A DNA stretch of 64,000 bases from sequence record NC_031934.1; one strand, 5' to 3'. The position numbers were made by a program, and so were the translations under genes. Numbering within the stretch: the first letter of the stretch is position 1; the number at the start of each line of letters is the position of its first letter. Of this stretch, positions 3,695 through 27,731 are shown one piece after another. This stretch comes from Escherichia phage MX01. The notes below the pieces were generated by a model. It was not told where the DNA came from, did no database searches, and saw nothing but the letters and a program-made list of their open reading frames with translations.

Positions 3695-3724
3695 AACAAT
3701 TCTCTCGTTGAGTTGGTAAAACCC

Positions 3725-3754
3725 ATCTTAACATAGAATTTTTAACTTGTAAAC
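3725..3754 (-). promoter_or_regulatory. Candidate early promoter
   Basis: Minus-sense GTTTAC, 18-nt spacer, TAAGAT upstream of the 69-aa ORF. Confidence 0.35.
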
Positions 3755-3778
3755 AGGAATTTTGTACTTTAATGCAAA

Positions 3779-3796
3779 ATGGGCCGAAAGGCCCAT
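3779..3796 (-). terminator. Hairpin downstream of hoc
   Basis: atgggcc-gaaa-ggcccat perfect 7-bp stem with tetraloop. Confidence 0.6.
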
Positions 3797-3798
3797 AA

Positions 3799-4647
3799 TT
3801 AGTAAACGTAATCGTATATAACACCAGCTTCTAAAGCGGTGCGATGAATAATTCGACCATTACGAGATTCTTGTACATCAACCTCTGAATAGTCGGTAAT
3901 CATTTTTTGAAGTGTATATCGGTGCAAATAATACGGGCTATCCGGGTCATCTGTTTTCCAGTCTTTGCCTTCAAGAGTCATTTTCTGGATTTCATCCATA
4001 ACCCACCAACCAACCCAAATATATGCTGAATTACGAACAGGGAGTGGATGAACGTAAGGTAATTCGCCATCCGGAACCGGTGCGACTTTAGCCGTGACTG
4101 TTACATTACCGGTTTTTGTGACAGTCGCCGGGTTATAATCAGTCGCCGAAACCACAACAGAAACTTCAATAACCTGTGAACCTTCAGTGCTTGTATCGAT
4201 TGCTAGAGTATCCGTGGTGCCAACTACAGGAGAACCGTCTTTCTTCCAAGAATAGGCAAAAGTAGCACCAGCAGGCGCGCCGACCACATCCGCTTTAAAA
4301 GAAGCTGGAGTACCTTCCGGAACATTAATTGATTCTGGGGTTAATGTCACAGAAACACCAGACATAGTTTTATTCTGGATAGTTAAAGTCGTCTCAGCTT
4401 CAGCAGTTTCCGGTTCGCCGTCCGCTGGTGTAGTTGTTGCAACAACTTTAATAGTCTTGCTGCCTGCTGGACCAACAGCAACATAATCCATTGCAGCAGT
4501 CACAGAAGATTGAGGAACACCATCAACGGTCCAGACAAATGATTCGGTACCTTCAGCTGCAGCACCGGAACCGGTCGCAGTGAAATTGGTTGTTGCTCCA
4601 ATAACGGCCGTAGCCGCCAAAGGAGCAATATCTACGGTATAAGCCAT
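3799..4647 (-). CDS. hoc: Hoc outer capsid protein with Ig-like domains, shorter than T4 Hoc
   Basis: 282 aa; N-terminal Ig-like repeats and C-terminal LPYVHPLP...WVMDEIQKMT...DWKTDDPDS match T4 Hoc as recalled. Confidence 0.85.
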   Translation of the reverse strand: MAYTVDIAPLAATAVIGATTNFTATGSGAAAEGTESFVWTVDGVPQSSVTAAMDYVAVGPAGSKTIKVVATTTPADGEPETAEAETTLTIQNKTMSGVSVTLTPESINVPEGTPASFKADVVGAPAGATFAYSWKKDGSPVVGTTDTLAIDTSTEGSQVIEVSVVVSATDYNPATVTKTGNVTVTAKVAPVPDGELPYVHPLPVRNSAYIWVGWWVMDEIQKMTLEGKDWKTDDPDSPYYLHRYTLQKMITDYSEVDVQESRNGRIIHRTALEAGVIYDYVY

Positions 4648-7457: not shown

Positions 7458-7892
7458 TTATTTACCCGCCTCAAATTGTCTCATCTCATGCATGGTCTTA
7501 AGGTTAAAACCACGCGCCTTAATAGCATCAAGTGCTGAACTACAAAAGTCTTGTAATAAAGCCCAATACTGAATTGATGTGTCGATTTTAATTACACTAG
7601 AATCCGCAGCCATAACGGTCTTTAATTCAGATTTCTCATATTGGTCCATACAAACCTCATCACCAGGCTCTCCACGTCCCGTGTAGAAATCTAATCGCTT
7701 CTTAAGTGAGGTCTTTTTCTGGATTTCTAATCTCATTATTTCTTTCTTACAATTCGTATACAGCCTTAGCCATTTGCTGTGCAGCAAAACGTTGTTCTGT
7801 ACTTCGTACTGTAAACGAGTCCCATCAATCTTTAAATCCTCGTCTAATGCGTCCTGGAATGATTCTAACTTATATTCAATCTCTTTACTCAT
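7458..7892 (-). CDS. uvsY: UvsY recombination mediator
   Basis: Start set at MSKEIEYKL; LQYEVQNNVLLHSKWL and C-terminal RGFNLKTMHEMRQFEAGK match T4 UvsY as recalled. Confidence 0.85.
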   Translation of the reverse strand: MSKEIEYKLESFQDALDEDLKIDGTRLQYEVQNNVLLHSKWLRLYTNCKKEIMRLEIQKKTSLKKRLDFYTGRGEPGDEVCMDQYEKSELKTVMAADSSVIKIDTSIQYWALLQDFCSSALDAIKARGFNLKTMHEMRQFEAGK

Positions 7893-7923
7893 CGCATGTT
7901 TCCTGTGTAATAACCATAGGACC

Positions 7924-7950
7924 ATTATACACTATTCATTTGAACAGCAA
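7924..7950 (-). promoter_or_regulatory. Candidate MotA-dependent middle promoter for uvsY
   Basis: Minus-sense TTGCTGTTCA (MotA-box-like, one mismatch) 13 nt upstream of TATAAT. Confidence 0.35.
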
Positions 7951-8340
7951 TTAACCACTCTGTGAGAGCTGGATTCTAATTTGCTCTAATGTATCTGGGT
8001 CATCAACAATACTAAACTGAACGGTCACGATAATCGAGTTATCATCGTACACAGGTGTCACACCTACAGCCAAGGCAGAAATTCTGGGTTCGAAGTTCCG
8101 CACAGCGGAAACTATATTACGCTTAATGGTGTCTGTGATTAATGGAGTAATATTCTCAAACAATTGGTTGCTGATGTCACAACCGAATTCAGGCATAAAA
8201 GGGCGTGAACCTTTGCGAGTAGTAATAATGCCTAACAAACTATTTTTTACTGCACGAGCACCTGTAGCTTTAGCAACGTCTCTATCCCAAGACGTTCTCA
8301 TCTCAGGGTCTAAATCCGAATACATTTTATTGATATTCAT
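7951..8340 (-). CDS. 25: Baseplate wedge protein gp25
   Basis: 129 aa; SLLGIITTRKGSRPF and EPRISALAV match T4 gp25 as recalled. Confidence 0.9.
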   Translation of the reverse strand: MNINKMYSDLDPEMRTSWDRDVAKATGARAVKNSLLGIITTRKGSRPFMPEFGCDISNQLFENITPLITDTIKRNIVSAVRNFEPRISALAVGVTPVYDDNSIIVTVQFSIVDDPDTLEQIRIQLSQSG

Positions 8341-9767: not shown

Positions 9768-10933
9768 GTTCAAAAACTATGCAGCGTGAAGGCTTTCCTA
9801 ATATTAGTATACGCCTTTACGAAGATTATGACGCCTGGTTAGAGCATCGTTTTGTTGAACTAGGCGCGACATTTACTACTCTAACAATGCGTGATGGACT
9901 TTATGGTAGTAATGAAGGATTGCTTCAGTTTTATGATGCAAAGAACCTTCATACTAAAATGGATGGCGAACAGATTATTCAAATTTCTGTTAAGAACGCT
10001 AACTCCGAGCGTACCCAGTCAAGAATTTATGGAAGCAAACACTTTGCTGTAGGAGTGGATTCGAAGGGCGACAATATCATAACAATACAACTCGCCCCAA
10101 TCCACTTTTTAGAGAATCTTAAATTTAGTCGTATGTTCTTCCCCAGTGTTCAAGAAACATTAACTGAAATGATTGGTGTTATTTATCAAGACCGTCCACT
10201 TCTTGCACCCCCATTGAACGGGATAAACGTTTATGTTCCTAATGTTCCTTGGTGTGATTCAATGGACCGTTATATGGAATTTGTACGGGAAGTAGGTATG
10301 GCCGTTGAATCTGATAAATTTGTATTTGTATGGGAAGATATAGATGGTATTTCTATCATGGACTACGAATTTATGGTTAATCAAGAGCCAATTAATTTTG
10401 TGGTAGGTGAGCCTCGTTTAATAGGCCAATACGTCCAAGATATGGACACTCCTATCGCATTTGATTTTGAATGGTTAACTAAAGCCAACCAACATTCCAG
10501 AAAACCATATGAAAACGCTACTGTATACGCCCACTCTTTCTTAGACAAAAACGCCACACGAATTACTTTTGGTGACGGGCAAAACAGTATATTGGTTTCT
10601 CGCTCCGGTGGATATTCTGATTATACCTACCGAAACGGTTTTGAAGAAGCCGATAGATTAGTTACTATGGCCCAATACGATGGATACGCTCATTGTAAGG
10701 TATATGGTAACTTTGAACTAACTCCAGGCGATAAGATTAATTTCTATGACCCTAAAAACCAATTCCAGTACGATTTTTATGTAGACGAAGTTATTCATGA
10801 AGTGAGTAACAATACATCAATTACAAACCTTTATATGTTTACTAATGGTAAGCCTATTAAGATTGAAGAACCGCCGAAGGTTAAAAATGAACTTAAAACT
10901 GATACTCCCGATCAAGAAAATAACGCTGGGTGA
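9764..10933 (+). CDS. 27: Baseplate hub protein gp27
   Basis: 389 aa, T4 gp27 size and position. Confidence 0.85.
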
Positions 10934-15219: not shown

Positions 15220-15510
15220 TTATTTACGGAACGAAATGAAACCTGCTGCAGTCATTAATGGTTGCTTTTTAACAAACACTGTGACTGAAATAGGAGCTTC
15301 AGATTCAAGCTGACCAGTCACTACACCATTAAAGATATTTTCAGTTTGTTCTGGATGAGAAAAATTCTCAACAGGTCGGATATCAAACTGTTTGTCTTCA
15401 CCGAAAACTCGACGTAATTCATTACCTACGGCACTGTCAAACACTTCAGAAGCAGGGATAACGTTTTCAACTACCAGTTCTTGACCATTAAAACGGAATG
15501 CAGATTTCAT
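15220..15510 (-). CDS. Hypothetical protein (96 aa) downstream of the alt array
   Basis: ORF with GAGGAG Shine-Dalgarno; its own early promoter upstream. Confidence 0.5.
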   Translation of the reverse strand: MKSAFRFNGQELVVENVIPASEVFDSAVGNELRRVFGEDKQFDIRPVENFSHPEQTENIFNGVVTGQLESEAPISVTVFVKKQPLMTAAGFISFRK

Positions 15511-15538: not shown

Positions 15539-15568
15539 ATAGTACCACATCCTTGTGGTGTTGTAAAC
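15539..15568 (-). promoter_or_regulatory. Early promoter overlapping the 3' end of alt paralogue 1
   Basis: Minus-sense GTTTAC, 18-nt spacer, TACTAT. Confidence 0.45.
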
Positions 15569-17691
15569 TACATTTTGAATTTATTTGATAAAGAAGAGAT
15601 GTCCAAAGATGCAGCAAGGATTTCCATAGCTTCGTTGCTTTCAGAAACGGATTCATTAACCAAGAATTGACTGAATCCATCCATCAGGCGAACTTCACCA
15701 GTTTCCATCAAATGGTCACCATCGTAAACAGATTCGCTGAGCTCTGAAGGAGGTGTTACGGTAGCTTCCATAAGGTATTTGTGAGATACTCTATCATTCA
15801 TGGCAAAAGCTGCTACTTTATCAACCTTCAACAATAATCCACGCGGAAGGATAATTTCTGCTTCTTCGGCATATTCTGTAAGGTCACCAGGAGCGATAAC
15901 TTTAACTGCTTCAGCACCTCGAATAACCATACCAATTTCAGCAATTCTATCTGCAGGACCTTCAGGTGCAATTGGATTACCAAACTCGTCTTCTTCCCAT
16001 TCTACCTCTTCATCATCGACTTCACCCACATCAGATGAACTACCGCTAGCCAATTTAAACAACTCATCAGCGGAGGATAAAGAACCTTCACCACCAACAA
16101 AAACGGCTTGGTTGTCGAGGGCCATATAATTTTTACCAAATTCGCCAAAGATGTTAGGCTTTAATGAGGCTGACACAAAGTTCTTAAAGTAAAATGTTTT
16201 GTTATCGATATTATGACGCAGAATTTTGTATGGCAAATCCTGACCACGATACAAAATAGTACCCTTAGGAAGTTTAATACCCTTAGTAAATGCTGAGTCT
16301 AAATCCTTAATCAATTTAATAGCCGTTGTATTGTTTTCGGATTCAGGTTTACCTAAAAGGAACAAGTTCATAGGAGCATATTCAGCTGCGCAATATTCAA
16401 TAATAGCATTGCTTTCGTCTTTGGTTAGGCCCTTAGGTTTAATGAGCTCACCTGAATAAGCATATGCATCACTAATAGAATCGTTAATTAGTTTATAAAC
16501 GGCTTCCATAGCGAAAGCAATTCGGGATGCTTTCTCTGAAGGGGAGCCTTTAAAACGGGTACTCAGGTTATTAACAATTTTCTTAATAATATCCAGACTA
16601 TTGGTTGTATTGATTTGCGAAAGGCCACTTAAAAGTCTATCGACTTCTGTATTAAAAAATGCCATATTATTAGAGTAAATTTCAAACCCTTGTTTATCTC
16701 TATTAGCATAATTTAGTTTAAATTTACTATCAGTCATTAAAGCGTGTGTGAGAGCAATAGTGTATCTAAAGTTGGCAAGGTCCTCGCTCTTAGATTTAAA
16801 CTGAGAAGCCTGGCGCATTTTGGTAATAGCACCTTTTTTAAAGTTCTGACTAATCTGTTCAATACCTTCGTTCTCAGGGCCTTCAGCCGTGTGAACCGGT
16901 ACAGAAGCTTCAAACTCGTTATAAACCTGCAATTCTTTAGGGGACAAAGTTTCAGGCTCAGCAGTAGAATACTGCGCCGCCGCTGCCATACGACGCGAAA
17001 TCTTAGTACGAGTAATGACAGCCTTATCAGTACGTTTCTCTTCAACTTGTGCAATAGATGCCGCTACGGCTTCGACCTTACTTACGGCCTGGCCGGTTTT
17101 CTTAGAAACATACACTTCGCCAACTTTAGACTCAACTTTAGTATAAAGATCGGCATTAATTTCAGGCATACCCTTGATATCTTCAATATTAGCACCACGA
17201 CGTACTAAAAGAACGTAGGTATGTTTTCCGCTGAATTGGAACATGTCGTCAACAACTTTAAACTTACCACCGGTACGAGCCATAGCCAAGCGAGCTAATA
17301 CGCGCTGAACGGTAGGACCTTTACCTTTCATTTTCTTAGTAGGGAAACGGAACAAAACCGCGTCCATTTTAAGTTTGTTTATTTGTTCATATATGGTATC
17401 GAAAATGGTGTTCAGTGTACCGAGTGGATCGGTACCCAAACCACCCTTGAGTTCTGCCGGAGCGCCTTTAGCAGATAAACTCATTAAGATAACATGGACG
17501 TACTTATCACCCGGCTTAACCATTTTAATAGCATCGCCTTCAGACGCGTATGAAACCATACGCGCTACTAAATTGTCATTACCAGGAGCATGGACCGCAA
17601 AAATCTGCGGTACGCCCGAGCCAGGTTTAAGATTTGTTACTGGGTAATTTTTTTTATCGCTTTTATCAAAAACTTCGTTTAAATTTTCCAT
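15568..17691 (-). CDS. alt: Alt-like ADP-ribosyltransferase, paralogue 1
   Basis: 707 aa; conserved N-terminal module; C-terminal R-S-ExE signature (LYRGQ, FVSASLKP, EAEIILPRG); unique acidic insertion. Confidence 0.85.
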   Translation of the reverse strand: MENLNEVFDKSDKKNYPVTNLKPGSGVPQIFAVHAPGNDNLVARMVSYASEGDAIKMVKPGDKYVHVILMSLSAKGAPAELKGGLGTDPLGTLNTIFDTIYEQINKLKMDAVLFRFPTKKMKGKGPTVQRVLARLAMARTGGKFKVVDDMFQFSGKHTYVLLVRRGANIEDIKGMPEINADLYTKVESKVGEVYVSKKTGQAVSKVEAVAASIAQVEEKRTDKAVITRTKISRRMAAAAQYSTAEPETLSPKELQVYNEFEASVPVHTAEGPENEGIEQISQNFKKGAITKMRQASQFKSKSEDLANFRYTIALTHALMTDSKFKLNYANRDKQGFEIYSNNMAFFNTEVDRLLSGLSQINTTNSLDIIKKIVNNLSTRFKGSPSEKASRIAFAMEAVYKLINDSISDAYAYSGELIKPKGLTKDESNAIIEYCAAEYAPMNLFLLGKPESENNTTAIKLIKDLDSAFTKGIKLPKGTILYRGQDLPYKILRHNIDNKTFYFKNFVSASLKPNIFGEFGKNYMALDNQAVFVGGEGSLSSADELFKLASGSSSDVGEVDDEEVEWEEDEFGNPIAPEGPADRIAEIGMVIRGAEAVKVIAPGDLTEYAEEAEIILPRGLLLKVDKVAAFAMNDRVSHKYLMEATVTPPSELSESVYDGDHLMETGEVRLMDGFSQFLVNESVSESNEAMEILAASLDISSLSNKFKM

Positions 17692-17694
17692 TAT

Positions 17695-19740
17695 TTACCC
17701 TTGGATGAATTTTTCTGGGATTTCGTCAAAATTAATACATGAAGCTAAAATAGGCATTATATCCACCTTGGTCGATTTGACAAATGAATCAAAAGACACA
17801 GGGTTGTCGGTCTCTGTTTCTACACCTTGGTAAACAACCAATTCGCCTGTTTCCATCAATGCATCGCCATCATAGATAACCGCATTTTCTGCTAGTTGGT
17901 CTGTGGTCTGGATATCTGCTTCCAATAATTTGGTGTTGTAGTTTCCTTTATATGAGGCATCAGTAATTTTAGTAATCTTAACTGTAGTTCCACGTGGAAG
18001 AATAACCTCTTGTTCTGTTGGAGAACCTGACAATTCACCAGGCATAATTACGTTAATAGAGTCTGCACCAGAAATTTTCCAGCCGATGTTCATCATTGTA
18101 TTTTCGGAACTCGTCAGCATACTTGGAAGAACAATTTCATTATCGCCTTGGAAAGATGTCCCAGCGCGATAGTCTTGATGTACTGCTGCCATTGCGACGT
18201 TTGATACCCAGCCGCCAAAGATAATTGGCTTAAGGGACGTTGATACATAGTTCCTGAAATAAAACAATTTTGAGTGTTTGATTTTATCAAAAGTGTTAAC
18301 ATTTAAATATTGCCCACGCCAAAGTGTAATATCAGGTGGCAATTTATGGCCAATTTCAAATGCCGCATCCATATCGTTAATTACTTCAATTACACGCTGG
18401 CTATCAATGAATTCTGCATCCTCTTCATAATAATTACCCAACAAATAATTATTAACATCGGTATAATATTGGCCACAATAAGAAGAAATAGCCTCACGCT
18501 GCTCATACTCAAATCGATTATCGCTATAACCGGCTGTAAAATGCATAAGACTTTCTGATGCTTCATTAGCAAAGTCGGTAACAGCAGCACTTATACGTTG
18601 AGCATACTCTTGTTCCCAAAGCTCTGCTGCATATTCTGACGCATCCATATTAGGAGGGGCCTCATTCACTTTTCTTTCGATAAATGCAGCTTTGCGAAGG
18701 TTAAGAATCTCTGCACATGATTCGGCAAAAATCTGCATCTGCTTCATACTGCCAACAGGAGCACGTTTAAGTTCACGATGCATACGGTTAAAAATTGGGT
18801 CAGAGTCTTCGACTCGAATTTCTTCTTTCCAAACACCATTTGCTCGCATAGCCGTATCTGCCGCGCGCATACGGTCCATAGTATTCGTTTCAGAAGGTCG
18901 AACAAAAATTTCTAGTTCTTCATAATCATCGATAAGTTCTGCCGTAGCCGGTCGACTAAACTTAGCAGCTTCTGCATCAATTTCGTCCCAACCTTCCGGA
19001 ACTTCATCTCGAGGAGAATACTGGGCTGCGGCCACAGCACGCCTAGAAATCTTGGTAGTAGTAATAACAGCCTTATCCGTACGTTTTTCTTCGACTGCCG
19101 CTATACTAGCAGATAGTGCTTCTATTTTGGTTACTGATTGGCCGGTTTTCTTAGAAACATAAACCTCACCAACTTTAGACTCAACCTTAGTGTAAAGGTC
19201 TGCATCAATTTCAGGCATACCTTTTATGTCCTCAATATTAGCTTGTTTACGAACCAGTAAAACGTATGTATGTTTGCCTGTAAATTGATACATATCATCG
19301 ACAACTTTAAACTTGCCGCCAGTACGAGCCATCGCCAAACGTGCCAATACACGTTGAACAGTAGGACCCTTACCTTTCATTTTCTTGGTAGGGAAGCGGA
19401 AAAGAACTGCATCCATTTTAAGTTTATTTACCTGTTCATATACCGTATCGAAAATGGTATTCAATGTACCAAATGGGTCAGAACCTAACCCACCTTTCAA
19501 CTCGGCTGGGGTACCCTTAGCAGACAAACTCATTAGAATAACGTGGACATATTTGTCGCCTGGCTTAACCATTTTAATAGCGTCTCCTTGAGACGCATAA
19601 GATACCATACGAGCAACCAAGTTATCATTACCTGGTGCTTGGATAGAGAAAATCTGTGGAATACCGGAACCTGGTTTAAGATTTATTACTGGATAGTTTT
19701 TAGCGGAATCACTATCAAAAACTTCGTTTAAATTTTCCAT
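17695..19740 (-). CDS. alt: Alt-like ADP-ribosyltransferase, paralogue 2
   Basis: 681 aa; same N-terminal module; LWRGQ, YVSTSLKP, EQEVILPRG. Confidence 0.85.
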   Translation of the reverse strand: MENLNEVFDSDSAKNYPVINLKPGSGIPQIFSIQAPGNDNLVARMVSYASQGDAIKMVKPGDKYVHVILMSLSAKGTPAELKGGLGSDPFGTLNTIFDTVYEQVNKLKMDAVLFRFPTKKMKGKGPTVQRVLARLAMARTGGKFKVVDDMYQFTGKHTYVLLVRKQANIEDIKGMPEIDADLYTKVESKVGEVYVSKKTGQSVTKIEALSASIAAVEEKRTDKAVITTTKISRRAVAAAQYSPRDEVPEGWDEIDAEAAKFSRPATAELIDDYEELEIFVRPSETNTMDRMRAADTAMRANGVWKEEIRVEDSDPIFNRMHRELKRAPVGSMKQMQIFAESCAEILNLRKAAFIERKVNEAPPNMDASEYAAELWEQEYAQRISAAVTDFANEASESLMHFTAGYSDNRFEYEQREAISSYCGQYYTDVNNYLLGNYYEEDAEFIDSQRVIEVINDMDAAFEIGHKLPPDITLWRGQYLNVNTFDKIKHSKLFYFRNYVSTSLKPIIFGGWVSNVAMAAVHQDYRAGTSFQGDNEIVLPSMLTSSENTMMNIGWKISGADSINVIMPGELSGSPTEQEVILPRGTTVKITKITDASYKGNYNTKLLEADIQTTDQLAENAVIYDGDALMETGELVVYQGVETETDNPVSFDSFVKSTKVDIMPILASCINFDEIPEKFIQG

Positions 19741-19743
19741 TAT

Positions 19744-21828
19744 TTACCCTTGGATGAATTTTTCTGGGATGTCATAGAGGTCTATGCATGAAGCCAAAAG
19801 AGACAGCACATCAACCCGTGTAGATTTAACAAATGAATCAAAAGATACAGGGCTTTCGGAAGTATCGAAATCATCTTGATATACGACCAACTCGCCGGTT
19901 TCCATTAGTACGTCACCATCATACACCACAGATTCTTGAAGCTCATCTGTTGTCATAACTTCGGCTTGGATGAGTTTTGTATTATTAGATGTTGTTCCAT
20001 CATTATTAGAAGCATCTGTTATTTTATTAACTTTGACCATTAATCCACGTGGTAGAATAACTTCAGCTTCAGTTGCTATTCCGAGATTTCCTGGATATAC
20101 AACATTAACTTTATGAGCCCCATCAATCGCCCATCCTATTTGAACTTTAACGTATTCAGGATTTTCTTTATATGCTCTTATTTCATTAGGATTGATAGTT
20201 ATTCCTTCTTCATTTTTATCGACTGTCAATTCATTGCGAACTTCAGGTTCTAAAAGACCAATACCTGCGTGGGTAACACCAAAACGTCCGAAAATGATAG
20301 GAGTTAATGAAGTAGATACAAAATTTCTAAAATAAAACACTTTATTTTTAACTAGTGCTTCGTATATAGGAGCAGTCATACTCTGTGCACGATAAACTGT
20401 GATGCCTTCTGGTATACGGTCGCCATTTTCAAAAGCAGAATCCAAATTATTAACTGCAGATTCGATATCTTTTTCACTCATAATCTCATAGTTATGAGGA
20501 TTGTAACGACCTAAAAGAAGGTTATTTATATCGCCGTATCCAGAGCCACAATATTCTCTGATGCCACGCTTTTGCGATGGGGTATATTTAGAACCCTCAC
20601 GAGCAATAGTAATATCAACCATTGAACCACCACCCACACCAGCAAAACTATATACGCGTTTTTTAATGAATTTGGTCTTGGCTGCTTTCCACTTGGACTC
20701 GGTCAATTCATTCCAGAGGTCATCAGGTTGTCCTTTACGAGTTTTGTTATGCGTAGCCAACCACTCGCCTTTGTATTCTTCGAAAACGGTATTAATAGCA
20801 GAGGCATATTTTTCTAGAGCTTTAACAGATGTCAAAGGTTCGTTTTTGATGGCTGATAGGATTTTCTCTTTAATTTTCTCTTTGATTTCACCTATACCGT
20901 GAAGAGGAAACATTTTATAATCGTAATGCAATTCTTCAGCAGTACCTTCAGCTACTATATTAGCAACCTTATTTTTAGCCGCAGGAGAATTGTTATTAGT
21001 AACCATTTCCTGGGCCTCAGGGATTAATGGAACTGTTGCCGGTTTATTAAAATCCGCTGCAGTAGCTTCATATTTCTTAAACAATTCACTTTCATTACGA
21101 TAAGATTCCAATGATTGGCTTGCTGCAATGGCGCGCCTAGAAATCTTAGTCTTGGTTATAACCATTTTATCAGTGCGACGTTCTTCAACCTTAGCAATAC
21201 TGCCGGCAATAGCAGTTTCTTTAGTAACCTGCACACCTTCTTTTTTGGAAATATAAACTTCACCGACATCAGAATCTACCTTAGTATACAATTCAGCATT
21301 AATTCCAGGCATACCTTTGATATCTTCGATATCAGCTTGTTTACGGACTACCAGGATGTAAGTATGTTTACCGGTAAATTGGTACATAGCCGGAACCACT
21401 TTAAAACGTCCACCGGTTTTCTGTGTTACCAAACGTTGGATAATACGTTGAACGATAGGGCCTTGACCTTTCATTTTCTTGGTAGGAAAACGGAACATCA
21501 CGGCATCCATACGAAGCTTTTTAACTTGGTCATAAACCACATCAAAAATAGTATTAATCGCATCTACAGGAGTAGGGCCAAGGCCACCTTTAAGTTCGGC
21601 TGGAGTACCTTTAGCTGAAAGGCTCATAAGGATAACGTGGGCATATTTATCACCCATTTTAACTTGTTTAATAGCATCACCTTCAGAAGCGTAGGATACC
21701 ATACGAGCAACTAATTGGGACTCTGCATCGCCAATCTTCCAAATCTGGGGTACTTTAAGTTTTGGGTTCAAGTTTACTGTAGGCAGAGTGCCTTCGGACT
21801 CAAACACTTCATTTAATTGTTCGGTCAT
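19744..21828 (-). CDS. alt: Alt-like ADP-ribosyltransferase, paralogue 3
   Basis: 694 aa; same N-terminal module; VYRAQ, FVSTSLTP, EAEVILPRG. Confidence 0.85.
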   Translation of the reverse strand: MTEQLNEVFESEGTLPTVNLNPKLKVPQIWKIGDAESQLVARMVSYASEGDAIKQVKMGDKYAHVILMSLSAKGTPAELKGGLGPTPVDAINTIFDVVYDQVKKLRMDAVMFRFPTKKMKGQGPIVQRIIQRLVTQKTGGRFKVVPAMYQFTGKHTYILVVRKQADIEDIKGMPGINAELYTKVDSDVGEVYISKKEGVQVTKETAIAGSIAKVEERRTDKMVITKTKISRRAIAASQSLESYRNESELFKKYEATAADFNKPATVPLIPEAQEMVTNNNSPAAKNKVANIVAEGTAEELHYDYKMFPLHGIGEIKEKIKEKILSAIKNEPLTSVKALEKYASAINTVFEEYKGEWLATHNKTRKGQPDDLWNELTESKWKAAKTKFIKKRVYSFAGVGGGSMVDITIAREGSKYTPSQKRGIREYCGSGYGDINNLLLGRYNPHNYEIMSEKDIESAVNNLDSAFENGDRIPEGITVYRAQSMTAPIYEALVKNKVFYFRNFVSTSLTPIIFGRFGVTHAGIGLLEPEVRNELTVDKNEEGITINPNEIRAYKENPEYVKVQIGWAIDGAHKVNVVYPGNLGIATEAEVILPRGLMVKVNKITDASNNDGTTSNNTKLIQAEVMTTDELQESVVYDGDVLMETGELVVYQDDFDTSESPVSFDSFVKSTRVDVLSLLASCIDLYDIPEKFIQG

Positions 21829-21864
21829 AATAATTCCTCTTTAATAACCTTATTTATGCCAGAA

Positions 21865-21880
21865 AAGGCCCGAAGGCCTT
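21865..21880 (-). terminator. UUCG-tetraloop hairpin upstream of the alt array
   Basis: Minus-sense AAGGCC-UUCG-GGCCUU. Confidence 0.55.
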
Positions 21881-22061
21881 AAAGTGGTAGCAACGTACGG
21901 TATACTTCAAATTTAGGACCCTTTTCATAGCGGTCGAAATTATCTTTAAAATCAGCGAATGCGATTTCATTTTCAAATTCAAGGACAATTTGGGACACTG
22001 CAGTGGAGACATCCCCACCTTCTTTATATCCAATAACCACGGTTTCTAAATAAGCTTTCAT
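21879..22061 (-). CDS. Hypothetical small protein (60 aa) downstream of ligase
   Basis: ORF starting 1 nt after the ligase stop (TAAtATG junction). Confidence 0.45.
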   Translation of the reverse strand: MKAYLETVVIGYKEGGDVSTAVSQIVLEFENEIAFADFKDNFDRYEKGPKFEVYRTLLPL

Positions 22062-22062
22062 A

Positions 22063-23586
22063 TTATAGTCCAGTTTGAGACCAATCACCAAATACATCTT
22101 CAAATGTATCAGCTTCTGTTTTATCGAAACGCCAACCTTTAATGATTGGAAGGAAAATACCTACAGTATCGGTACGTCCTTTAGAATGAACCCAACCATT
22201 ACATTCACAGTCAGCAATACGTCCAATCAACTTACCTTCACGAGCTTGTTTCATAAGAAGTTCACGGTCTAAATCAGGACGGTCTTCCAATGGAATCAAT
22301 ACTTTTTTACCTGATTTATCTTTCTTATGGGTGGTATCTTTAAAGCCTGAACCACAGTCGCTTGTAATTCGACGACAACGTGATACCAACTCGACACCAC
22401 CTAGCTTGTTAGGGTCCTTCGAGTGTTCATAATAACCCACCACTTCTAAAGCAATATCGATTACTTCTTTGAACTTGATAAGATTCTTAGAACGACGGTT
22501 TTCCCAGTAGGAGTCCATGTTCTTAAGGATAATGCCTTCCAGACCCTGGTCGACATATTTCTTATAAACGACTTTAGCTTCTTCAAGATTATTAACCCAC
22601 CGGTTTTCGATAGCTTCAACACGCGTTGTACCATGCAATACGACATTATGAGCAACCATAAGTTCTAAGGCTGTAAAGCGTACATCATACTTATCGCCTT
22701 TAATTTTACCTTCGGAATATACGACATCCAATGGGACATAATCCCATGCCTGTAATACCATACCAGCGGCTTCAGTAGCCGAAATAGTTCCTTGAAGAGC
22801 TTTGTTAGCCAAGCCATTTGACGTAGAACGATTGGCGACAGTTTGGAATTCCTTAGCCTTACTTAATTCAGGAAGTTCCTCGTCAAACATACTAAACAAA
22901 TCATTAGATGCTTTAGGTTCTACCTTAGGAGTATGGTAAACTAATTCGCCATCAATCATAACGCCATTAGGATGGCGTTGTCGAGCTTCTTCGGTCATGG
23001 CCATTAATTCAGCCGCCAAAAGATTAAGCCCTTGATATTCGTTACCACCACGAGTAAGGAATGTCACACCATCGTTACGAACTTCGGCAAAACAACGAGC
23101 ACCATCAGCTTTTAATTGAGCAAACGCTGGCCATTTAATATTTTTCTTAATCAAAGCTTCATCATAAGAACTCGCCAACATCTGCGGTTGTTCAGGGATT
23201 AAACCTTTCCAAACCTTGTTAGCAATAGAAATCGATGCACCACATTCAAGGTCGCGCATCATTACACGACGTAATACCTCGGCATCCGGGGCCTTAGCAT
23301 CAGCAATGATTTGAGCCAGTTCTTCAATAGCCGCATTACCCGTAATCTTACGTGTGGCTAATGTGAATTCAGCGAAATCAAGAAGGTCTTCAAGAGTAAT
23401 CATACCAAAGGATTGAGATGTAAATCCAGGTTCTGGCCACTTTTTAATACCGTAGTTCAGACGACGGGTATAAGCCATACGATAAACACGTTTCAGAAGC
23501 TCATTGTCCTTTTCACGAGCAATAATGGCTTCTTTAGCTTTAGTAGAATCAATAGCAGCAATTTCGTTTAAAATATCTAAAATCAT
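22063..23586 (-). CDS. 30: ATP-dependent DNA ligase gp30
   Basis: Start at MILDILNEIAAI with GAGGT Shine-Dalgarno; KADGAR adenylation motif; matches T4 ligase as recalled. Confidence 0.9.
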   Translation of the reverse strand: MILDILNEIAAIDSTKAKEAIIAREKDNELLKRVYRMAYTRRLNYGIKKWPEPGFTSQSFGMITLEDLLDFAEFTLATRKITGNAAIEELAQIIADAKAPDAEVLRRVMMRDLECGASISIANKVWKGLIPEQPQMLASSYDEALIKKNIKWPAFAQLKADGARCFAEVRNDGVTFLTRGGNEYQGLNLLAAELMAMTEEARQRHPNGVMIDGELVYHTPKVEPKASNDLFSMFDEELPELSKAKEFQTVANRSTSNGLANKALQGTISATEAAGMVLQAWDYVPLDVVYSEGKIKGDKYDVRFTALELMVAHNVVLHGTTRVEAIENRWVNNLEEAKVVYKKYVDQGLEGIILKNMDSYWENRRSKNLIKFKEVIDIALEVVGYYEHSKDPNKLGGVELVSRCRRITSDCGSGFKDTTHKKDKSGKKVLIPLEDRPDLDRELLMKQAREGKLIGRIADCECNGWVHSKGRTDTVGIFLPIIKGWRFDKTEADTFEDVFGDWSQTGL

Positions 23587-23596
23587 AATCACCTCA

Positions 23597-23875
23597 TTAG
23601 TCATGGATTCTATTATAAGCCACATCAGCCAAAAGCAAGTCTAATCGCTTATGATAAGAGAACACAAATCTCATTCGCCCATCAGATTTGAACTTGGACA
23701 TAAAGTGGACATAAATGAATCCCTGTTCGACGCATTCGCGCCAAACAGGATGGTCTTTAGCCGGATTTACATCAAATGAGTAATCATGATTCACATGACG
23801 AATAAACTGGTTTACATGACCATAATCCATTGTAGTGGTAGGACCATAGTCTGAAATTGTATGAACTACAAACAT
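23597..23875 (-). CDS. Hypothetical protein (92 aa), 30.1-position
   Basis: ORF starting 1 nt after the upstream stop (TAAtATG). Confidence 0.45.
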   Translation of the reverse strand: MFVVHTISDYGPTTTMDYGHVNQFIRHVNHDYSFDVNPAKDHPVWRECVEQGFIYVHFMSKFKSDGRMRFVFSYHKRLDLLLADVAYNRIHD

Positions 23876-23876
23876 A

Positions 23877-24515
23877 TTAACCTCGAGCAATCCATTCAAC
23901 TGCGGCATTATTACGAAGGGATTCGATTGCTGCGATATCGTCCCATGAATTAACCTTTACGGCTAAATTAGGTTTAAAGTCACGTTCACCACGAGCTAAC
24001 CAATAAACTTGGATATCCATGAGAACATTAGATGCAGCATCACAGTGGTGAGCCAAATCATCAACATAAAACTTAATACGTTTACCGTACGTATTTTTAG
24101 CTCTTATGAAGAGGTCTTCTTTTGATTCTGAATGACCACACATCAGAATCTCCTTGAATGCGCCAGGGAACAAAGCATTCAAATTGAATTGTCTATTCAG
24201 CAGTGCATCAATTGAGTCGCCTAGCGCAGTCACGGCTACAAAATCGAAGTCTTTTTTGAGCTTGTTGATATGTTTTAATGCGTCCATGTAAGGAGACAGA
24301 TAACGAATAAAATCTGACTGATTGTACTTCTCGATTAAACGAGCGCCTAATTCATTATCACAATTAAACAGCTCACCAGGAGATAAGAAACGTTCGTCCT
24401 GAATCATATTCAAAATATGTTCTAAAGGCAAATTATATTTCTGTGCGAAATAAGGCAAGCCGGACTGCCAACTTAAACATACTCCATCGATATCTGTTAA
24501 GATAACTGGTTTCAT
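23877..24515 (-). CDS. HAD-superfamily phosphatase-like protein
   Basis: 212 aa; HAD motif I DIDGV near the N-terminus and a DD motif (VDDLAHH) near the C-terminus. Confidence 0.5.
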   Translation of the reverse strand: MKPVILTDIDGVCLSWQSGLPYFAQKYNLPLEHILNMIQDERFLSPGELFNCDNELGARLIEKYNQSDFIRYLSPYMDALKHINKLKKDFDFVAVTALGDSIDALLNRQFNLNALFPGAFKEILMCGHSESKEDLFIRAKNTYGKRIKFYVDDLAHHCDAASNVLMDIQVYWLARGERDFKPNLAVKVNSWDDIAAIESLRNNAAVEWIARG

Positions 24516-24979
24516 AATAAATCTCTCAATTTGTTTAGGATGTCGATAAACTCTTTTTCAGTTAGTATTGTATCACATTCTGTAAGGTGGCTCGCCATCG
24601 AATGCTTTAAAACTTTGCCCTTTGTAGCTTGTAATGCGTCGCGGAATCCTTTGTTTTGGAGCGCTGCTTCAAAATATGCATTTGTATACAACTCTTTCCA
24701 TGATGTAGAGTATCTTGAAAAGGGAATTCCAAGCCAGAAAAGCGTCCCACGGTCCGCAGCTCTTGCATAAGCTCTTCCAGTTTGTTGTGCGGCCAGACCG
24801 GACATCCTAAATATACGTTTTTGTTGTTCATGATTTCTCACCTTACACCCTTGGAGGAATCCTTCGAGTCCACCAAATTGGATACCATCCATAACGAAAG
24901 GCCATTTAGCAAAGTTACTTAATGCACACGATGGCCACGGAAAATTACTTCTGATTTCTAACTCAGACATCTTTGACAC
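24512..24979 (-). CDS. NADAR (YbiA-like, DUF1768) domain protein
   Basis: 155 aa; SNFAKWPFVMDGIQFGGLEGFLQGCK and downstream segment resemble E. coli YbiA as recalled; no search run. Confidence 0.5.
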   Translation of the reverse strand: MSKMSELEIRSNFPWPSCALSNFAKWPFVMDGIQFGGLEGFLQGCKVRNHEQQKRIFRMSGLAAQQTGRAYARAADRGTLFWLGIPFSRYSTSWKELYTNAYFEAALQNKGFRDALQATKGKVLKHSMASHLTECDTILTEKEFIDILNKLRDLL

Positions 24980-25175
24980 TTATAATTTCGACATCAGCCC
25001 AATGCCCGTAACCAGGCAGACGGTCTTCAATAGATAATCCGCCATCAGATTTCAGCATTTTAATTGTTTTAGTATATGGTTCATCTTGCGGATGCACAGG
25101 AGATAAATCAGTTACACGATAAGTCACTTCGACCATTTCCGTACCTAATAATTTCTGAATCAATTTCTTAACCAT
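24963..25175 (-). CDS. Hypothetical protein (70 aa)
   Basis: ORF in early-gene run, same strand, tightly packed. Confidence 0.45.
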   Translation of the reverse strand: MVKKLIQKLLGTEMVEVTYRVTDLSPVHPQDEPYTKTIKMLKSDGGLSIEDRLPGYGHWADVEIISVKDV

Positions 25176-25176
25176 A

Positions 25177-25371
25177 TTATCCTCGCTTTAAACATTTGAT
25201 TACAGACAGTTCACCACCCGTGCGAACATCTTCAGTTCCATCGACCCATAGGACGGTGTAGGCTTCTTTAATAGTAACATTACCTAATTTAAAAGCAGGT
25301 AGAACCTTTGAAATCATTCCAGGAATACCTACACCTTTTAGCTGAACAGTTTGTGATAAGAATAGTTGCAT
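25177..25371 (-). CDS. Hypothetical protein (64 aa)
   Basis: ORF in early-gene run. Confidence 0.4.
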   Translation of the reverse strand: MQLFLSQTVQLKGVGIPGMISKVLPAFKLGNVTIKEAYTVLWVDGTEDVRTGGELSVIKCLKRG

Positions 25372-25658
25372 TAGAACCTCATCTGAAAGCCATGTGATTT
25401 AACATTACCGCCGTAGATGTCAGACGTATTGACTTCACGGGCAGCGCTCGGGTCGATATTGATATCATGGTTGAGCTTAGTGATTGCTAGGGTATCACGA
25501 CCATTAACAGTACGGAATTCTACCGGGCATACAACATCGGCGTAAGCCTTAATAGATTCACGAGTGGGCTGTTTGTCGGCAGGAACGTCTTTACCCGCTT
25601 TAGAGAAAACAACTTCACAGAAATTTTTACGAGTATCGAAATAAGTGGTCATAAACAT
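25371..25658 (-). CDS. Hypothetical protein (95 aa)
   Basis: ORF with GAGGA Shine-Dalgarno and an upstream hairpin. Confidence 0.5.
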   Translation of the reverse strand: MFMTTYFDTRKNFCEVVFSKAGKDVPADKQPTRESIKAYADVVCPVEFRTVNGRDTLAITKLNHDINIDPSAAREVNTSDIYGGNVKSHGFQMRF

Positions 25659-25698
25659 AATATTTTCCTCAAAGGGGCCGAAGCCTCCATTTTTAAGA

Positions 25699-26064
25699 TT
25701 AGATATCGAATTCGTTCAGAACTACATCAAAGATTGCTTCCAGGTGTTCAGGTTTAGCTCGGTTGCTCAGGATGTGACGAATCCAAGTTTTAACCAGAAG
25801 CTTACGATTAACACCGTTCCAGCAAGGATGGGTACCTAAATCACGTTGACGGAAATCATCATCTAAAGCGATTTTAAAAGTAGAACCTTCCATTGTGATT
25901 GAAACCGTAATACCATTTTCAAAGCGCATATAAACGTAGTTAGGAGTCATGCACTGTTCGATTTCGCACACCGCGCCGTTGTTGTGTTTCCACAGGCAAA
26001 TAACTTCAGAAGAACCAGCGATACCGTTAGAAACATATTTACGTTCGAAGTTGATGTAGTTCAT
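25699..26064 (-). CDS. Hypothetical protein (121 aa)
   Basis: ORF preceded by GGAGAATAAAATG and the shared leader. Confidence 0.5.
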   Translation of the reverse strand: MNYINFERKYVSNGIAGSSEVICLWKHNNGAVCEIEQCMTPNYVYMRFENGITVSITMEGSTFKIALDDDFRQRDLGTHPCWNGVNRKLLVKTWIRHILSNRAKPEHLEAIFDVVLNEFDI

Positions 26065-26105
26065 TTTATTCTCCAGTTTGTTTTCGTATTATTTGGTACA
26101 GGTCT

Positions 26106-26134
26106 ATAATAACACAACCTGTACCAAAGTAAAA
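26106..26134 (-). promoter_or_regulatory. Candidate early promoter (variant -35)
   Basis: Minus-sense TTTTAC, 17-nt spacer, TATTAT, then the conserved leader. Confidence 0.35.
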
Positions 26135-26137
26135 CAT

Positions 26138-26470
26138 TTATTTCACAACATTCCAATTTTTCATATCAAGTTTACCAACTTTTTTCATCTGAGCAATCAG
26201 ACGTTCAGCGCGTGTACGGGCATTAACATAATAGAATTCACCATTTTTGTTTTCTTCAATACGACCAGTAATTACAGTTTTCAGTTCATAAATCCAACCT
26301 GTAAAGAAGTTGTGAAGCTCGATGGTGAACGTGAAATCAGTACCCGTACCTTCAGTTGTTTCAACTTCGATGATATCACCTTCAACTGCAGTCAGGACCC
26401 ACATGGTTTCTTGATATCCGCCGTTGAAACATTTAGCTTTAACAGATGCATTCAGATTTACAGTTTTCAT
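26138..26470 (-). CDS. Hypothetical protein (110 aa)
   Basis: ORF preceded by the same leader and Shine-Dalgarno as the neighbouring gene. Confidence 0.5.
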   Translation of the reverse strand: MKTVNLNASVKAKCFNGGYQETMWVLTAVEGDIIEVETTEGTGTDFTFTIELHNFFTGWIYELKTVITGRIEENKNGEFYYVNARTRAERLIAQMKKVGKLDMKNWNVVK

Positions 26471-26511
26471 TTTATTCTCCAGTTTGTTTTCGTATTATTT
26501 GGTACATGTCT

Positions 26512-26540
26512 ATAGTATCATGCCTACCGGAGATGTACAC
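26512..26540 (-). promoter_or_regulatory. Candidate early promoter (variant -35 GTGTAC)
   Basis: Minus-sense GTGTAC, 17-nt spacer, TACTAT, conserved leader. Confidence 0.4.
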
Positions 26541-26568
26541 CATTTTTTAAAGATTTAGAAACAAAAAT

Positions 26569-26586
26569 GGGACTCCGAAGAGTCCC
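26569..26586 (-). terminator. UUCG-tetraloop hairpin
   Basis: Minus-sense GGGACUC-UUCG-GAGUCCC, perfect 7-bp stem. Confidence 0.6.
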
Positions 26587-26591
26587 ATAAC

Positions 26592-26753
26592 TTATGCCTG
26601 AGGCTTACCAAAGCAAGCAGCATCTGCACGCAATACTGCACGAGCACGAGCTTGAAGCTTATCAACTACCTGATTGATACGCTTGTTGGACGCACGCTTG
26701 TAACCAGCGCGTTTAGAGGTACCGTCAACTACTTTAACTTCTTTCTTAGCCAT
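26592..26753 (-). CDS. Small basic protein (53 aa)
   Basis: Hand-translated MAKKEVKVVDGTSKRAGYKRASNKRINQVVDKLQARARAVLRADAACFGKPQA; not in ORF track; terminator hairpin immediately downstream. Confidence 0.35.
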   Translation of the reverse strand: MAKKEVKVVDGTSKRAGYKRASNKRINQVVDKLQARARAVLRADAACFGKPQA

Positions 26754-27020
26754 TTTAAATCTCTTAAATTAGAATGCAGGACTTATTGGCGTTGCCTGCG
26801 CAAGCCCTCAAGGGGAACATAGGTTTCGGATATTTAACGACAGGATAACCATAAACCTCGTCATCATACCAACCACGACTTAGACAGATAACCTTTTTCT
26901 GACGCGTGATAGTACAAAATACATTCAAGAGGTACACCGTAAAATTGTCGGGGCGGTACTTCTAAAACATACCGATTCGTAAATCGATAATCAGACAATT
27001 CGACGGCTCCTCGATTTAAC

Positions 27021-27269
27021 TTACTTCAGGGTAATAATAAAATGACGTACTGCTTTACGAGCTGCTGAAGCCAAAGGCTTAGAAAATTTCAGTTCATCTT
27101 TAGCTTCCAGTTCAGCAGCCAGAGTAGCCTGTGCTGGGTTCAGATGTTTGAAATAACGCAGGATTTCCAGTGCTTCGGCTTCAACATCAATAGATGCACC
27201 GTAGTTTTCGTGACCGTTGTTCCAAGCGTTGCGTTGCAGTTCAAGAGCGTGATTCAGATGTTTGTTCAT
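27021..27269 (-). CDS. rIII: rIII lysis-inhibition accessory protein
   Basis: 82 aa; position next to gene 31 and sequence MNK.LN.AL.LQR.AW.NGHE...YFKHLNPAQA consistent with T4 rIII as recalled. Confidence 0.7.
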   Translation of the reverse strand: MNKHLNHALELQRNAWNNGHENYGASIDVEAEALEILRYFKHLNPAQATLAAELEAKDELKFSKPLASAARKAVRHFIITLK

Positions 27270-27407
27270 TTTAGTTTCTCAATTCGAGATAAAGATTGGC
27301 GAGCACGTTCGTCTCAGTATTTCCAGCTGAGTTGTATCTCGCCGTATGGAAGAGGCTAACCCCATACACCAACCGAAGTTCTGTATGACATCAACCTCTT
27401 CGTAATT

Positions 27408-27731
27408 TTATTTATACAGGCAAGGAATTGCTTTATAATGACAGGTAACGAATTTTTGTTTAATTTCTTTAGGTTGTTTAATACCTAATGCAACCAACGG
27501 ATGAGGCACGTTAGCAATCTTACCCACAGGAAGTGGAGTCAAATCACCTACTTCACAAAAATCTTCAGGGACATCAGGTCCTACAGAATAAATTTCACAA
27601 AGTTCAGGGATTTCACCTTGATGAAGTTTGCCAATAACGATACCAGATGCAGTAGTTTCTTCATCGCCAGCTTGTTTTGGTTCGGAAACGAGAATAACAT
27701 ATTCTCCGACCGCTTTAATAGGAAGTTCCAT
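27408..27731 (-). CDS. 31: Co-chaperonin gp31 (GroES-like)
   Basis: 107 aa; [18 protein letters not shown] and C-terminal [17 protein letters not shown] match T4 gp31 as recalled. Confidence 0.9.

Follow-up and report, generated by a model that had tools for sequence, protein, structure and literature searches.

The product of gene 30.3 of phage T4 was named AdfN (anti-DarT factor NADAR) in work published in 2024-2025 (PMC11825919, PMC11125620). Deletion and complementation in T4 and T2 showed that gp30.3 protects against DarTG1, and the T4 protein is both necessary and sufficient for DarTG1 resistance (PMC11825919). In vitro, T4 gp30.3 strips ADP-ribose from DNA (PMC11825919), and the linkage it hydrolyzes is that to guanine and not that to thymine (PMC11125620). 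The substitutions E36A and K43A and a C-terminal truncation each weaken the protein, and the RB69 allele, which is devoid of the C-terminal helix, goes with DarTG1 sensitivity (PMC11825919). The residue in the last strand is specific to the clade and is His in phage NADARs (PMC11125620). T4 AdfN is fully effective only in T-even infection, where its authors suspect a T-even partner protein (PMC11825919); outside such infection it cannot neutralize DarT1 (PMC11125620), and in uninfected cells it does not substitute for DarG1 (PMC11825919). Another NADAR relative, YbiA, is encoded on the chromosome of E. coli K-12 in a LexA-controlled operon and affords no protection against DarT1 in vivo (PMC11125620).

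During infection, the host DarT1 toxin ADP-ribosylates replicating phage DNA, and AdfN hydrolyzes the N-glycosidic bond that joins the ADP-ribose to guanine. With the adducts removed, phage replication continues. The action is enzymatic, like that of the cognate DarG1 antitoxin, and not one of toxin binding.

The locus described here contains a NADAR gene that is already known, as it is an ortholog of this characterized anti-defense enzyme, followed by a gene for a predicted phosphatase of the HAD superfamily. It lies in a 64,000-nucleotide stretch of phage DNA, referred to as the window herein. Positions 23500-25200 are 99.2% identical to Dhakavirus IME281, and IME281 and QL01 share 99% identity with the window. 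Judged from these matches, the source is a Dhakavirus-type T4-like coliphage and not a Tequatrovirus. The alt genes, gene 30 (ligase), 30.1, 30.2, 30.3, and 30.4 occur in the same order as on the T4 gene map, and 30.3 and 30.2 are consecutive early genes in the standard T4 arrangement. The features are as follows.

15568..21828, minus strand: three Alt-type ART genes in tandem (707, 681, and 694 aa), from PF03496
22063..23586, minus strand: gene 30, ATP-dependent DNA ligase, from PF01068 (83 bits)
23597..23875, minus strand: gene 30.1 homolog (DUF3045), from PF11243 (58.8 bits)
23877..24515, minus strand: gene 30.2, predicted HAD-superfamily phosphatase of 212 aa, from phrog_420, identity to T4, motifs, AlphaFold2, and Foldseek
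24512..24515, minus strand: ATGA, overlap of the 30.3 stop codon and the 30.2 start codon, from the sequence itself
24512..24970, minus strand: adfN (gene 30.3), predicted NADAR-fold DNA ADP-ribosylglycohydrolase, from PF08010, T4 orthology, AlphaFold2, and Foldseek
24963..25175, minus strand: gene 30.4 homolog of 70 aa, from phrog_2042 (E = 6.9e-34) and its T4 position

The initial annotation had described two overlapping ORFs, and both were confirmed; they lie on the minus strand at 24512-24979 (GTG start, 155 aa) and 23877-24515 (212 aa), with a 4-nt overlap in ATGA. It had placed the HAD gene upstream of the NADAR gene; as transcribed, the order is the opposite, with the HAD gene downstream. 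The 155-aa ORF matched PF08010 at 215 bits (cut-off 36) and phrog_652 with E = 3.5e-50, and the 212-aa ORF matched phrog_420 with E = 1.5e-70. By tblastn, each was present in ∼1,450 to 1,500 phage records. Because of these Pfam and PHROG matches and their presence in phage records, the two ORFs are real genes and not chance reading frames. Translation of the NADAR gene probably begins at the ATG at 24970, for a product of 152 aa, and not at the mechanically called GTG at 24979, since MSELEI is the N terminus of T4 gp30.3 and of all full-length homologs and since this start produces an 8-nt overlap with the 30.4 homolog directly upstream, equal to that in T4. Gene 30.1 likely begins at the ATG at 23875, with a GAGG ribosome-binding site before the start codon; in the longer mechanical ORF, residue 12 is the first to be covered by the PF11243 match. 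Gene 30 likely starts at the ATG at 23586, which yields 507 aa, and the ligase gene of IME281 is likewise 1524 nt long. A scan of 21800-27500 for promoters and terminators found promoter-like sites to be rarer than in shuffled sequence and found neither a promoter nor a terminator between 30.3 and 30.2.

To place the 155-aa protein, we used profile searches, structure prediction, and alignment. General NADAR models were below threshold. In the Pfam search PF08719 (DUF1768) was absent at E <= 0.1, and TIGR02464 (riboflavin-intermediate N-glycosidase) gave only a weak match (E = 0.049, 13.9 bits, cut-off 73.7). What ties the protein to the superfamily is instead its structure, a profile match to YbiA, and the literature. 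When the profile of the 30.3 family was compared with the PDB, YbiA was the sole significant sequence-profile match (E = 8.8e-4). The AlphaFold2 model (pLDDT 89.9, pTM 0.84) contains the alpha+beta fold of the YbiA type, with core helices and small beta-hairpins. A Foldseek search of the PDB with this model returned a probability of 1.0 for three structures only, namely YbiA (2b3w), the Phytophthora NADAR PnNADAR (8bau), and the G. lovleyi NADAR (8bat). Of these, YbiA was the sole match at or below 0.001 (E = 5.9e-5), 8bau and 8bat had E values of 0.02-0.03, and the match following the three NADAR structures had E = 2.7.

Alignment of the 30.3 family showed the conserved catalytic Glu and Lys to be present. 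The N-terminal pattern quoted in the initial annotation, SNFAKWPFVMDGIQFGGLEGFLQGCK, corresponds to residues 21-46 of the 155-aa ORF. E39 and H126 are invariant in the family and K46 is nearly so; in T4 numbering, these three catalytic residues are E36, H123, and K43. The YbiA counterparts of E39 and K46 are the E and K of its SEHYFQAQK motif, in a helix of the form E-x-x-[FY]-x-Q-x-x-K. H126 directly follows the strand at 123-125 in the model, and the protein thus carries the His of the phage clade in the last strand and not the Glu of the YbiA clade. The C-terminal helix is intact, with residues 141-154 modeled and the ORF reading through to its ...LNKLRDLL end. The fold search, the profile match to YbiA, and the catalytic residues together bear out the NADAR call.

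Comparison with the described proteins places the 30.3 product closest to T4 AdfN. The two are 85% identical over 152 aa (23 substitutions), and the gene occupies the same site, where it overlaps 30.4 by 8 nt and 30.2 by 4 nt, just as in T4. The equivalents of E36, K43, and H123 and the C-terminal helix are all kept, and we saw no sign in the sequence of a functional difference. Gene 30.3 is, by this identity and position, the ortholog of T4 adfN. By analogy with the T4 protein, we infer that its product removes ADP-ribose from guanine in DNA and acts against DarTG1. The earlier suggestion that this locus counters a DarT-type host defense agrees with the experiments on T4 gp30.3/AdfN (PMC11825919, PMC11125620). 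The NADAR of DarG1 (8bat) and that of Phytophthora (8bau) share the fold (probability 1.0, TMq 0.56-0.61) and are predicted to share the reaction, removal of guanine-linked ADP-ribose (PMC11825919, PMC11125620), at an identity to the 30.3 protein of only 16-17%. Unlike the DarG1 NADAR, 30.3 is an orphan with no adjoining DarT toxin, and it has His in the last strand where DarG1 has Asp (PMC11125620). E. coli YbiA is the best structural match (TMq 0.69) and has the motif FSNF...E..FQ..K in common with the 30.3 protein, but it differs in the Glu of its last strand. The PADLOC defense models matched neither the 30.3 nor the 30.2 protein.

The similarity to YbiA raises another reading, namely that the NADAR protein acts mainly on soluble molecules, either ADP-ribose-derived immune signals or riboflavin intermediates, as N-glycosidases of the YbiA type do. 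Soluble ADP-ribose derivatives have been proposed as the principal substrates of phage NADARs (Iyer et al. 2022, PMC9503650), and both the rank of YbiA among the structural matches and the weak TIGR02464 match are in keeping with such a role. However, genetics and biochemistry have directly demonstrated both DNA de-ADP-ribosylation and counter-defense against DarTG1 for the T4 protein, at 85% identity, and the last-strand residue is the phage-clade His. We therefore regard a mainly soluble substrate as extremely unlikely.

Gene 30.2 is widespread, with ∼1,450 phage records by tblastn. Its 212-aa product is 74% identical to T4 gp30.2 over 194 aa and is encoded at the same site, between 30.3 and 30.1. 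Unlike the 278-aa T4 protein, it has no C-terminal tail of ∼85 aa; the family falls into length classes of ∼200-220 and 260-300 aa. The DIDGV and DD motifs cited for it in the initial annotation are residues 8-12 and 152-153, respectively. The complete set comprises motif I (D8-x-D10-G), motif II (T96), motif III (K132), and motif IV (D152-D153). An alignment of 29 homologs, down to 37% identity, showed no variation at D8, D10, G11, K132, D152, or D153 and conservation of T96 in at least 90%.

Assignment to the HAD superfamily from sequence searches stayed below threshold. The single sequence gave a best, weak match in the PDB at E = 0.25, the family profile matched the cdN 2jao weakly (E = 0.11), and PF00702 gave weak matches in 5 of 29 family members (best E = 3.5e-4). 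Structure prediction and two fold searches resolved the assignment. The AlphaFold2 model (pLDDT 93.1) has a Rossmannoid HAD core and a cap domain, which the model suggests to be helical and which we read as C1-type. Foldseek found 154 PDB matches at E <= 1e-3, and each of the 50 listed was a HAD-fold hydrolase or phosphatase. With the model, the fold searches, and the invariant motifs in agreement, the HAD call holds as far as fold and motifs go, and the protein is a predicted Mg-dependent HAD phosphatase of the aspartyl-phosphate (DxD) kind with a helical cap.

The 5′(3′)-deoxyribonucleotidases (NT5C; cdN 2jao/6g2n, mdN 4mum, and S. epidermidis 3bwv) have the same combination of HAD core and helical cap. 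They also share with gp30.2 the DxDGV form of motif I and the DD of motif IV, and NT5C/cdN proteins are its best, though weak, sequence matches (identity 14-18%). We did not assign gp30.2 to NT5C (PF06941), for which the 30.2 protein scored 13.4 bits against a gathering cut-off of 24.8 (E = 0.074), and treat the relationship as a resemblance only. Since gp30.2 is most like the 5′(3′)-(deoxy)nucleotidases, the substrate of the predicted phosphatase is most likely a nucleoside monophosphate or another small phospho-ester of that kind. Pfam returned nothing informative in the extra regions of four distant HAD homologs (P0197, P0240, P0189, and P0144), and a literature search found no paper on gp30.2; a paper on NARP3 had no bearing on it. 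In T4, 30.2 is dispensable on E. coli K-12 as well as under DarTG1.

We then considered whether the two genes work together. The initial annotation had proposed that NADAR and HAD proteins form a pair that processes ADP-ribosylated substrates. In such a two-enzyme module, gp30.2 would dephosphorylate a derivative of the ADP-ribose released by AdfN or would itself be the T-even factor of AdfN, which would fit the failure of T4 AdfN against DarT1 outside T-even infection (PMC11125620). The 4-nt overlap between the genes, common to T4 and the window, could be taken as a sign of such a module, but overlaps of 4 and 8 nt are the norm across the 30.x cluster and the overlap therefore carries no signal. 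Linkage was assessed in 78 viral HAD-gene loci, uncorrected for kinship, and a few complete records. Of the 78, 34 loci from several genera had a NADAR gene no more than 10 kb from the HAD gene, directly upstream and on the same strand. Against this, the other 44 loci, which include all distant HAD relatives, had no NADAR gene within 10 kb, and Klebsiella phage Mineola keeps both genes but 60 kb apart, with 30.2 beside 30.1, ligase, and Alt and with 30.3 in a tRNA cluster.

The T4 HIDEN-SEQ transposon data bear on the same question. Under DarTG1, insertions in 30.3 were lost (log2FC -7.25, padj 0), whereas those in 30.2, covering 71 TA sites, were not depleted (log2FC -0.12, p = 0.61). The HIDEN-SEQ preprint gives hits for several defense systems and nowhere mentions 30.2 in its main text. 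Given the transposon data and the broken linkage, gp30.2 is unlikely to be the missing T-even factor of AdfN, and we consider the two-enzyme module as a whole very unlikely. The pairing proposed earlier thus gives way to ordinary T4 synteny of separable genes, with 30.2 insertions neutral under DarTG1.

A related possibility, to which we give a very small chance, is that gp30.2 is a counter-defense or salvage phosphatase acting downstream of or beside AdfN and either clearing a phosphorylated product of the freed ADP-ribose or breaking down an immune signal derived from a nucleotide. If this were true, its role would become visible only with other hosts or other defense systems, and 30.3-30.2 would constitute a two-step anti-ADP-ribosylation cassette of Tequatrovirus- and Dhakavirus-type phages.

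The remaining neighbors of interest are the ART genes, which had been reported as three in number and about 3 kb away. The number was right, with genes at 15568-17691, 17695-19740, and 19744-21828 (PF03496 E values of 4e-17, 2e-21, and 9e-36), but the distance was not, as the nearest ends ∼2 kb away. DNA ligase and gene 30.1 lie between the array and the NADAR/HAD pair. By analogy with the IME281 record, a small ORF at the alt.1 position probably also lies in between. The three ARTs and T4 Alt all agree at the R, S-T-S, and E-x-E positions, which on sequence grounds makes the three Alt enzymes R-S-E exotoxin-type ARTs. Enzymes of this type modify arginine in proteins.

It could be argued that the NADAR protein reverses or tunes ADP-ribosylation of protein or RNA targets by these three Alt enzymes. 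The ART genes, at a distance of ∼2-9 kb, are transcribed in the same direction as 30.3, and the NADAR genes of T4-like phages are expressed early together with ARTs (Iyer et al. 2022, PMC9503650). However, the NADARs tested, T4 gp30.3 included, act on guanine-linked and not thymine-linked ADP-ribose in DNA (PMC11125620), a chemistry at odds with an arginine-modifying partner. Moreover, Mineola keeps Alt beside ligase and 30.2 with the NADAR gene 60 kb off, and T4 alt insertions were neutral under DarTG1 (log2FC -0.01). On substrate chemistry and Mineola gene order, we rejected this reading, to which we attach a very low probability. The nearness to the ART array, to which the initial annotation had attached meaning, is again ordinary T4 synteny. 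A toxin-antitoxin module of the DarT-NADAR type was likewise rejected, since the ARTs are of the Alt/exotoxin type and are separated from 30.3 by ligase, 30.1, and 30.2.

Taken together, the region very probably consists of an adfN ortholog and a HAD phosphatase gene that are neighbors through T4 synteny and the tight, overlapping packing of genes in this cluster, with no module between them and no tie to Alt. Since 30.3 is the characterized AdfN and 30.2 merely its neighbor, the finding is correct but ordinary. The presence of 30.3 predicts resistance of the phage to E. coli carrying DarTG1, which would be useful in choosing therapy phages and in host-range work. In the IME281 record 30.3 is unannotated and the neighboring labels are shifted, and correct naming of the genes therefore has some practical value. 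Beyond annotation the locus matters little, and the biology that remains is the role of the predicted phosphatase encoded by the widespread gene 30.2.

The minus-strand gene order of the window is that of T4, and therefore the 155-aa NADAR ORF corresponds to gene 30.3 and the 212-aa HAD ORF to gene 30.2. Every motif that the initial annotation had cited for the two ORFs was found in the sequence, and sequence comparisons identify both as genuine genes: the 155-aa protein matched Pfam PF08010 (Phage_30_3) at 215 bits (cut-off 36) and phrog_652 (E=3.5e-50), the 212-aa protein matched phrog_420 (E=1.5e-70), and by tblastn 30.3 and 30.2 each occur in about 1,450-1,500 phage records, almost all T4-like. 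Across 23500-25200, identity to Dhakavirus IME281 and its relatives QL01, WG01, and Bp7 is 99.2%.

Genes of the window in T4 order
15220-15510, minus strand, alt.-3-like gene
15568-21828, minus strand, three Alt-type ADP-ribosyltransferases (ARTs)
22063-23586, minus strand, DNA ligase, gene 30
After the ligase, minus strand, in this order, 30.1 (DUF3045), 30.2, 30.3, 30.4, 30.5, 30.6, 30.7
23877-24515, minus strand, HAD ORF (gene 30.2), 212 aa
24512-24979, minus strand, NADAR ORF (gene 30.3), 155 aa, GTG start

The two ORFs overlap by 4 nt through a shared ATGA; in the direction of transcription 30.2 lies downstream of 30.3, not upstream as described initially. Translation of 30.3 likely begins at the ATG at 24970, yielding 152 aa, as MSELEI is the N-terminus of T4 gp30.3 and of every full-length homologue, and this start recreates the 8-nt 30.3/30.4 overlap of T4. 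In the IME281 record (MH051913.1), the equivalent of window 24512-24979 (10013-10480) carries no annotation for the NADAR/adfN gene, and the notes are off by one gene, the HAD gene being called "gp30.3" and the DUF3045 gene "gp30.2".

The NADAR assignment was upheld by several lines of evidence. Over its full length, the 155-aa protein shares 85% identity with T4 gp30.3. When a profile built from ten 30.3 family members was run against PDB sequences, E. coli YbiA was the sole significant match (E=8.8e-4), with LSNFA..P...DG......E.F.Q..K of the family lining up with FSNFA...SEHYFQAQK of YbiA. General NADAR sequence models scored the 155-aa protein below threshold because the gp30.3 clade owns a separate Pfam family. 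A confident AlphaFold2 model (pLDDT 89.9, pTM 0.84) gave YbiA as its best Foldseek match in the PDB (E=5.9e-5, TMq 0.69), followed by a Phytophthora NADAR-ADP-ribose complex and a Geobacter lovleyi NADAR; nothing meaningful was found in the PDB beyond these three NADAR structures (next E=2.7). Residues E39, K46, and H126 (E36, K43, and H123 in T4) are present and invariant or almost so across the family alignment, and the C-terminal helix is complete. Sequence and model together thus identify gene 30.3 as a NADAR gene and the orthologue of T4 adfN.

Within adfN we also observed a 74-aa ATG ORF in the +1 frame (24607-24831, minus strand), at the site of annotated T4 gene 30.3'. Of 15 sequences (the window, T4, and 13 loci), 14 keep this frame open over 76 codons and the last, locus L006, over 61; in more distant homologues (about 40-45% identity) the open frame spans 22-78 codons (+1) versus 17-46 (+2). 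Either selection or codon bias could account for this openness.

The product of gene 30.2 has a HAD fold and is a predicted phosphatase. Its 194-aa core is 74% identical to T4 gp30.2, yet the window protein lacks the ~85-aa C-terminal tail, rich in Pro/Tyr/Asn, of the 278-aa T4 protein (7475-8311 of locus L001). Two size groups exist among the homologues, one of about 200-220 aa and one of about 260-300 aa, and the tail is therefore a variable addition to the HAD core. Sequence-only searches remained sub-threshold (Pfam NT5C, E=0.074; family profile versus mouse cytosolic 5'(3')-deoxyribonucleotidase [cdN], E=0.11). The HAD call was nevertheless borne out by four motifs conserved across 29 homologues down to 37% identity (D8-x-D10-G, T96, K132, and D152-D153) and by a highly confident model (pLDDT 93.1) with 154 Foldseek PDB matches at E<=1e-3, of which all 50 listed are HAD-fold hydrolases or phosphatases. 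In the HAD superfamily, a DxD nucleophile and acid pair is indicative of a phosphatase rather than a dehalogenase. An invariant Trp 8 residues past the nucleophile is matched in the alignment by the cdN Phe in DGVLADFESGL, which we take to be a base-stacking residue, and therefore our best guess for the substrate is a nucleotide. The family is large (an exhaustive HMMER search with E<=1e-3 yielded 1,224 cluster representatives); some GenBank records call gp30.2 a HAD hydrolase or 5'-nucleotidase, and our literature search on gp30.2 found no paper. In some distant relatives (P0197, P0189, P0240, and P0144) the HAD domain is fused to other regions: by eye, the 385-aa N-terminal part of P0197 (GDLDI motif) appears nucleotidyltransferase-like and the C-terminal part of P0189 (GRHR motif) ParB-like, and Pfam found nothing in the extensions of the four.

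An anti-DarT role is already established knowledge for the T4 orthologue of this NADAR. T4 gp30.3 removes guanine-linked, not thymine-linked, ADP-ribose on DNA, and in the last strand the phage gp30.3 clade carries His at a position that is Glu or Asp in other NADARs (Schuller et al. 2024, PMC11125620). Named AdfN, the purified protein takes ADP-ribose off DarT1-modified DNA; its deletion prevents T4 and T2 from plaquing on DarTG1 hosts, its expression rescues RB69, and E36A, K43A, or loss of the last helix weakens it (Johannesman et al. 2025, PMC11825919). Given the conserved equivalent residues and the complete last helix, the initial guess of a DarT-countering NADAR is, by orthology with T4, most likely right.

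T4 AdfN is fully active only in T-even infection. The authors suspect the involvement of a further T-even protein, for which gp30.2 is an obvious candidate by gene position. Transposon insertion data for T4 (HIDEN-SEQ, control versus DarTG1, sheet Data S6) speak against it for DarTG1: insertions in 30.3 were lost under DarTG1 (log2FC -7.25, adjusted p 0), whereas 30.2 (71 TA sites) was neutral (log2FC -0.12, p=0.61), as was alt (log2FC -0.01), and 30.2 is non-essential on K-12 (72/72 sites disrupted) (10.1101/2025.11.20.689424). Some cooperation between gp30.2 and AdfN under conditions beyond those tried seems very improbable. In the same data, 30.4 was mildly but significantly depleted (log2FC -1.79, adjusted p 0.014); this is probably a polar effect, since adfN directly follows and overlaps 30.4 (homologue at 24963-25175). 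The label "30.4" does not appear in the available main-text passages of the preprint.

A link between the ART array and the NADAR and HAD genes, as first proposed, is unsupported: against it stand this neutrality of alt, the separation of NADAR and ART genes described below, and chemistry, as Alt enzymes are exotoxin-type R-S-E ARTs whose chemistry is unlike that of the guanine adducts removed by NADARs. The array itself (15568-21828, minus strand) comprises three full-length tandem paralogues of 707, 681, and 694 aa, all retaining the R, S-T-S, and E-x-E positions; identity to the first is 34-50%, the 34% being T4 Alt. T4 has a single alt gene with remnants alt.-1 and alt.-2, and two alt genes occupy this site in the 99% identical IME281.

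The proposal that NADAR and HAD form a functional pair is likewise unsupported, on account of their linkage in addition to the neutrality of 30.2. Among 78 IMG/VR loci with a 30.2 homologue and 10-kb flanks, 34 contained a gp30.3-type NADAR, in every case upstream of the HAD gene and on its strand. The two genes adjoin in phages of the T4-, RB69-, and Dhakavirus-like types, and elsewhere the gap reaches about 1.2 kb; the flanks of the other 44 loci, including those of every distant HAD relative, lacked a NADAR. In Klebsiella phage Mineola, 30.2 keeps its place beside 30.1, ligase, and Alt, while 30.3 lies in a tRNA cluster 60 kb away; both genes are kept but uncoupled, and the NADAR is also uncoupled from the ART gene. 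Its place among tRNA genes, with a SegB-type homing endonuclease gene about 2 kb off, suggests that the Mineola NADAR gene (3501-3950) moved within T4-like genomes. Overlaps occur at almost all gene junctions of this cluster, so the 4-nt one between 30.3 and 30.2 is uninformative.

Taken together, the NADAR gene and the HAD fold of the initial annotation stand, and the pairing and the ART link are unsupported. The feature is already known, consisting of the orthologues of T4 adfN and T4 30.2, and we conclude that their adjacency is inherited synteny rather than a module.
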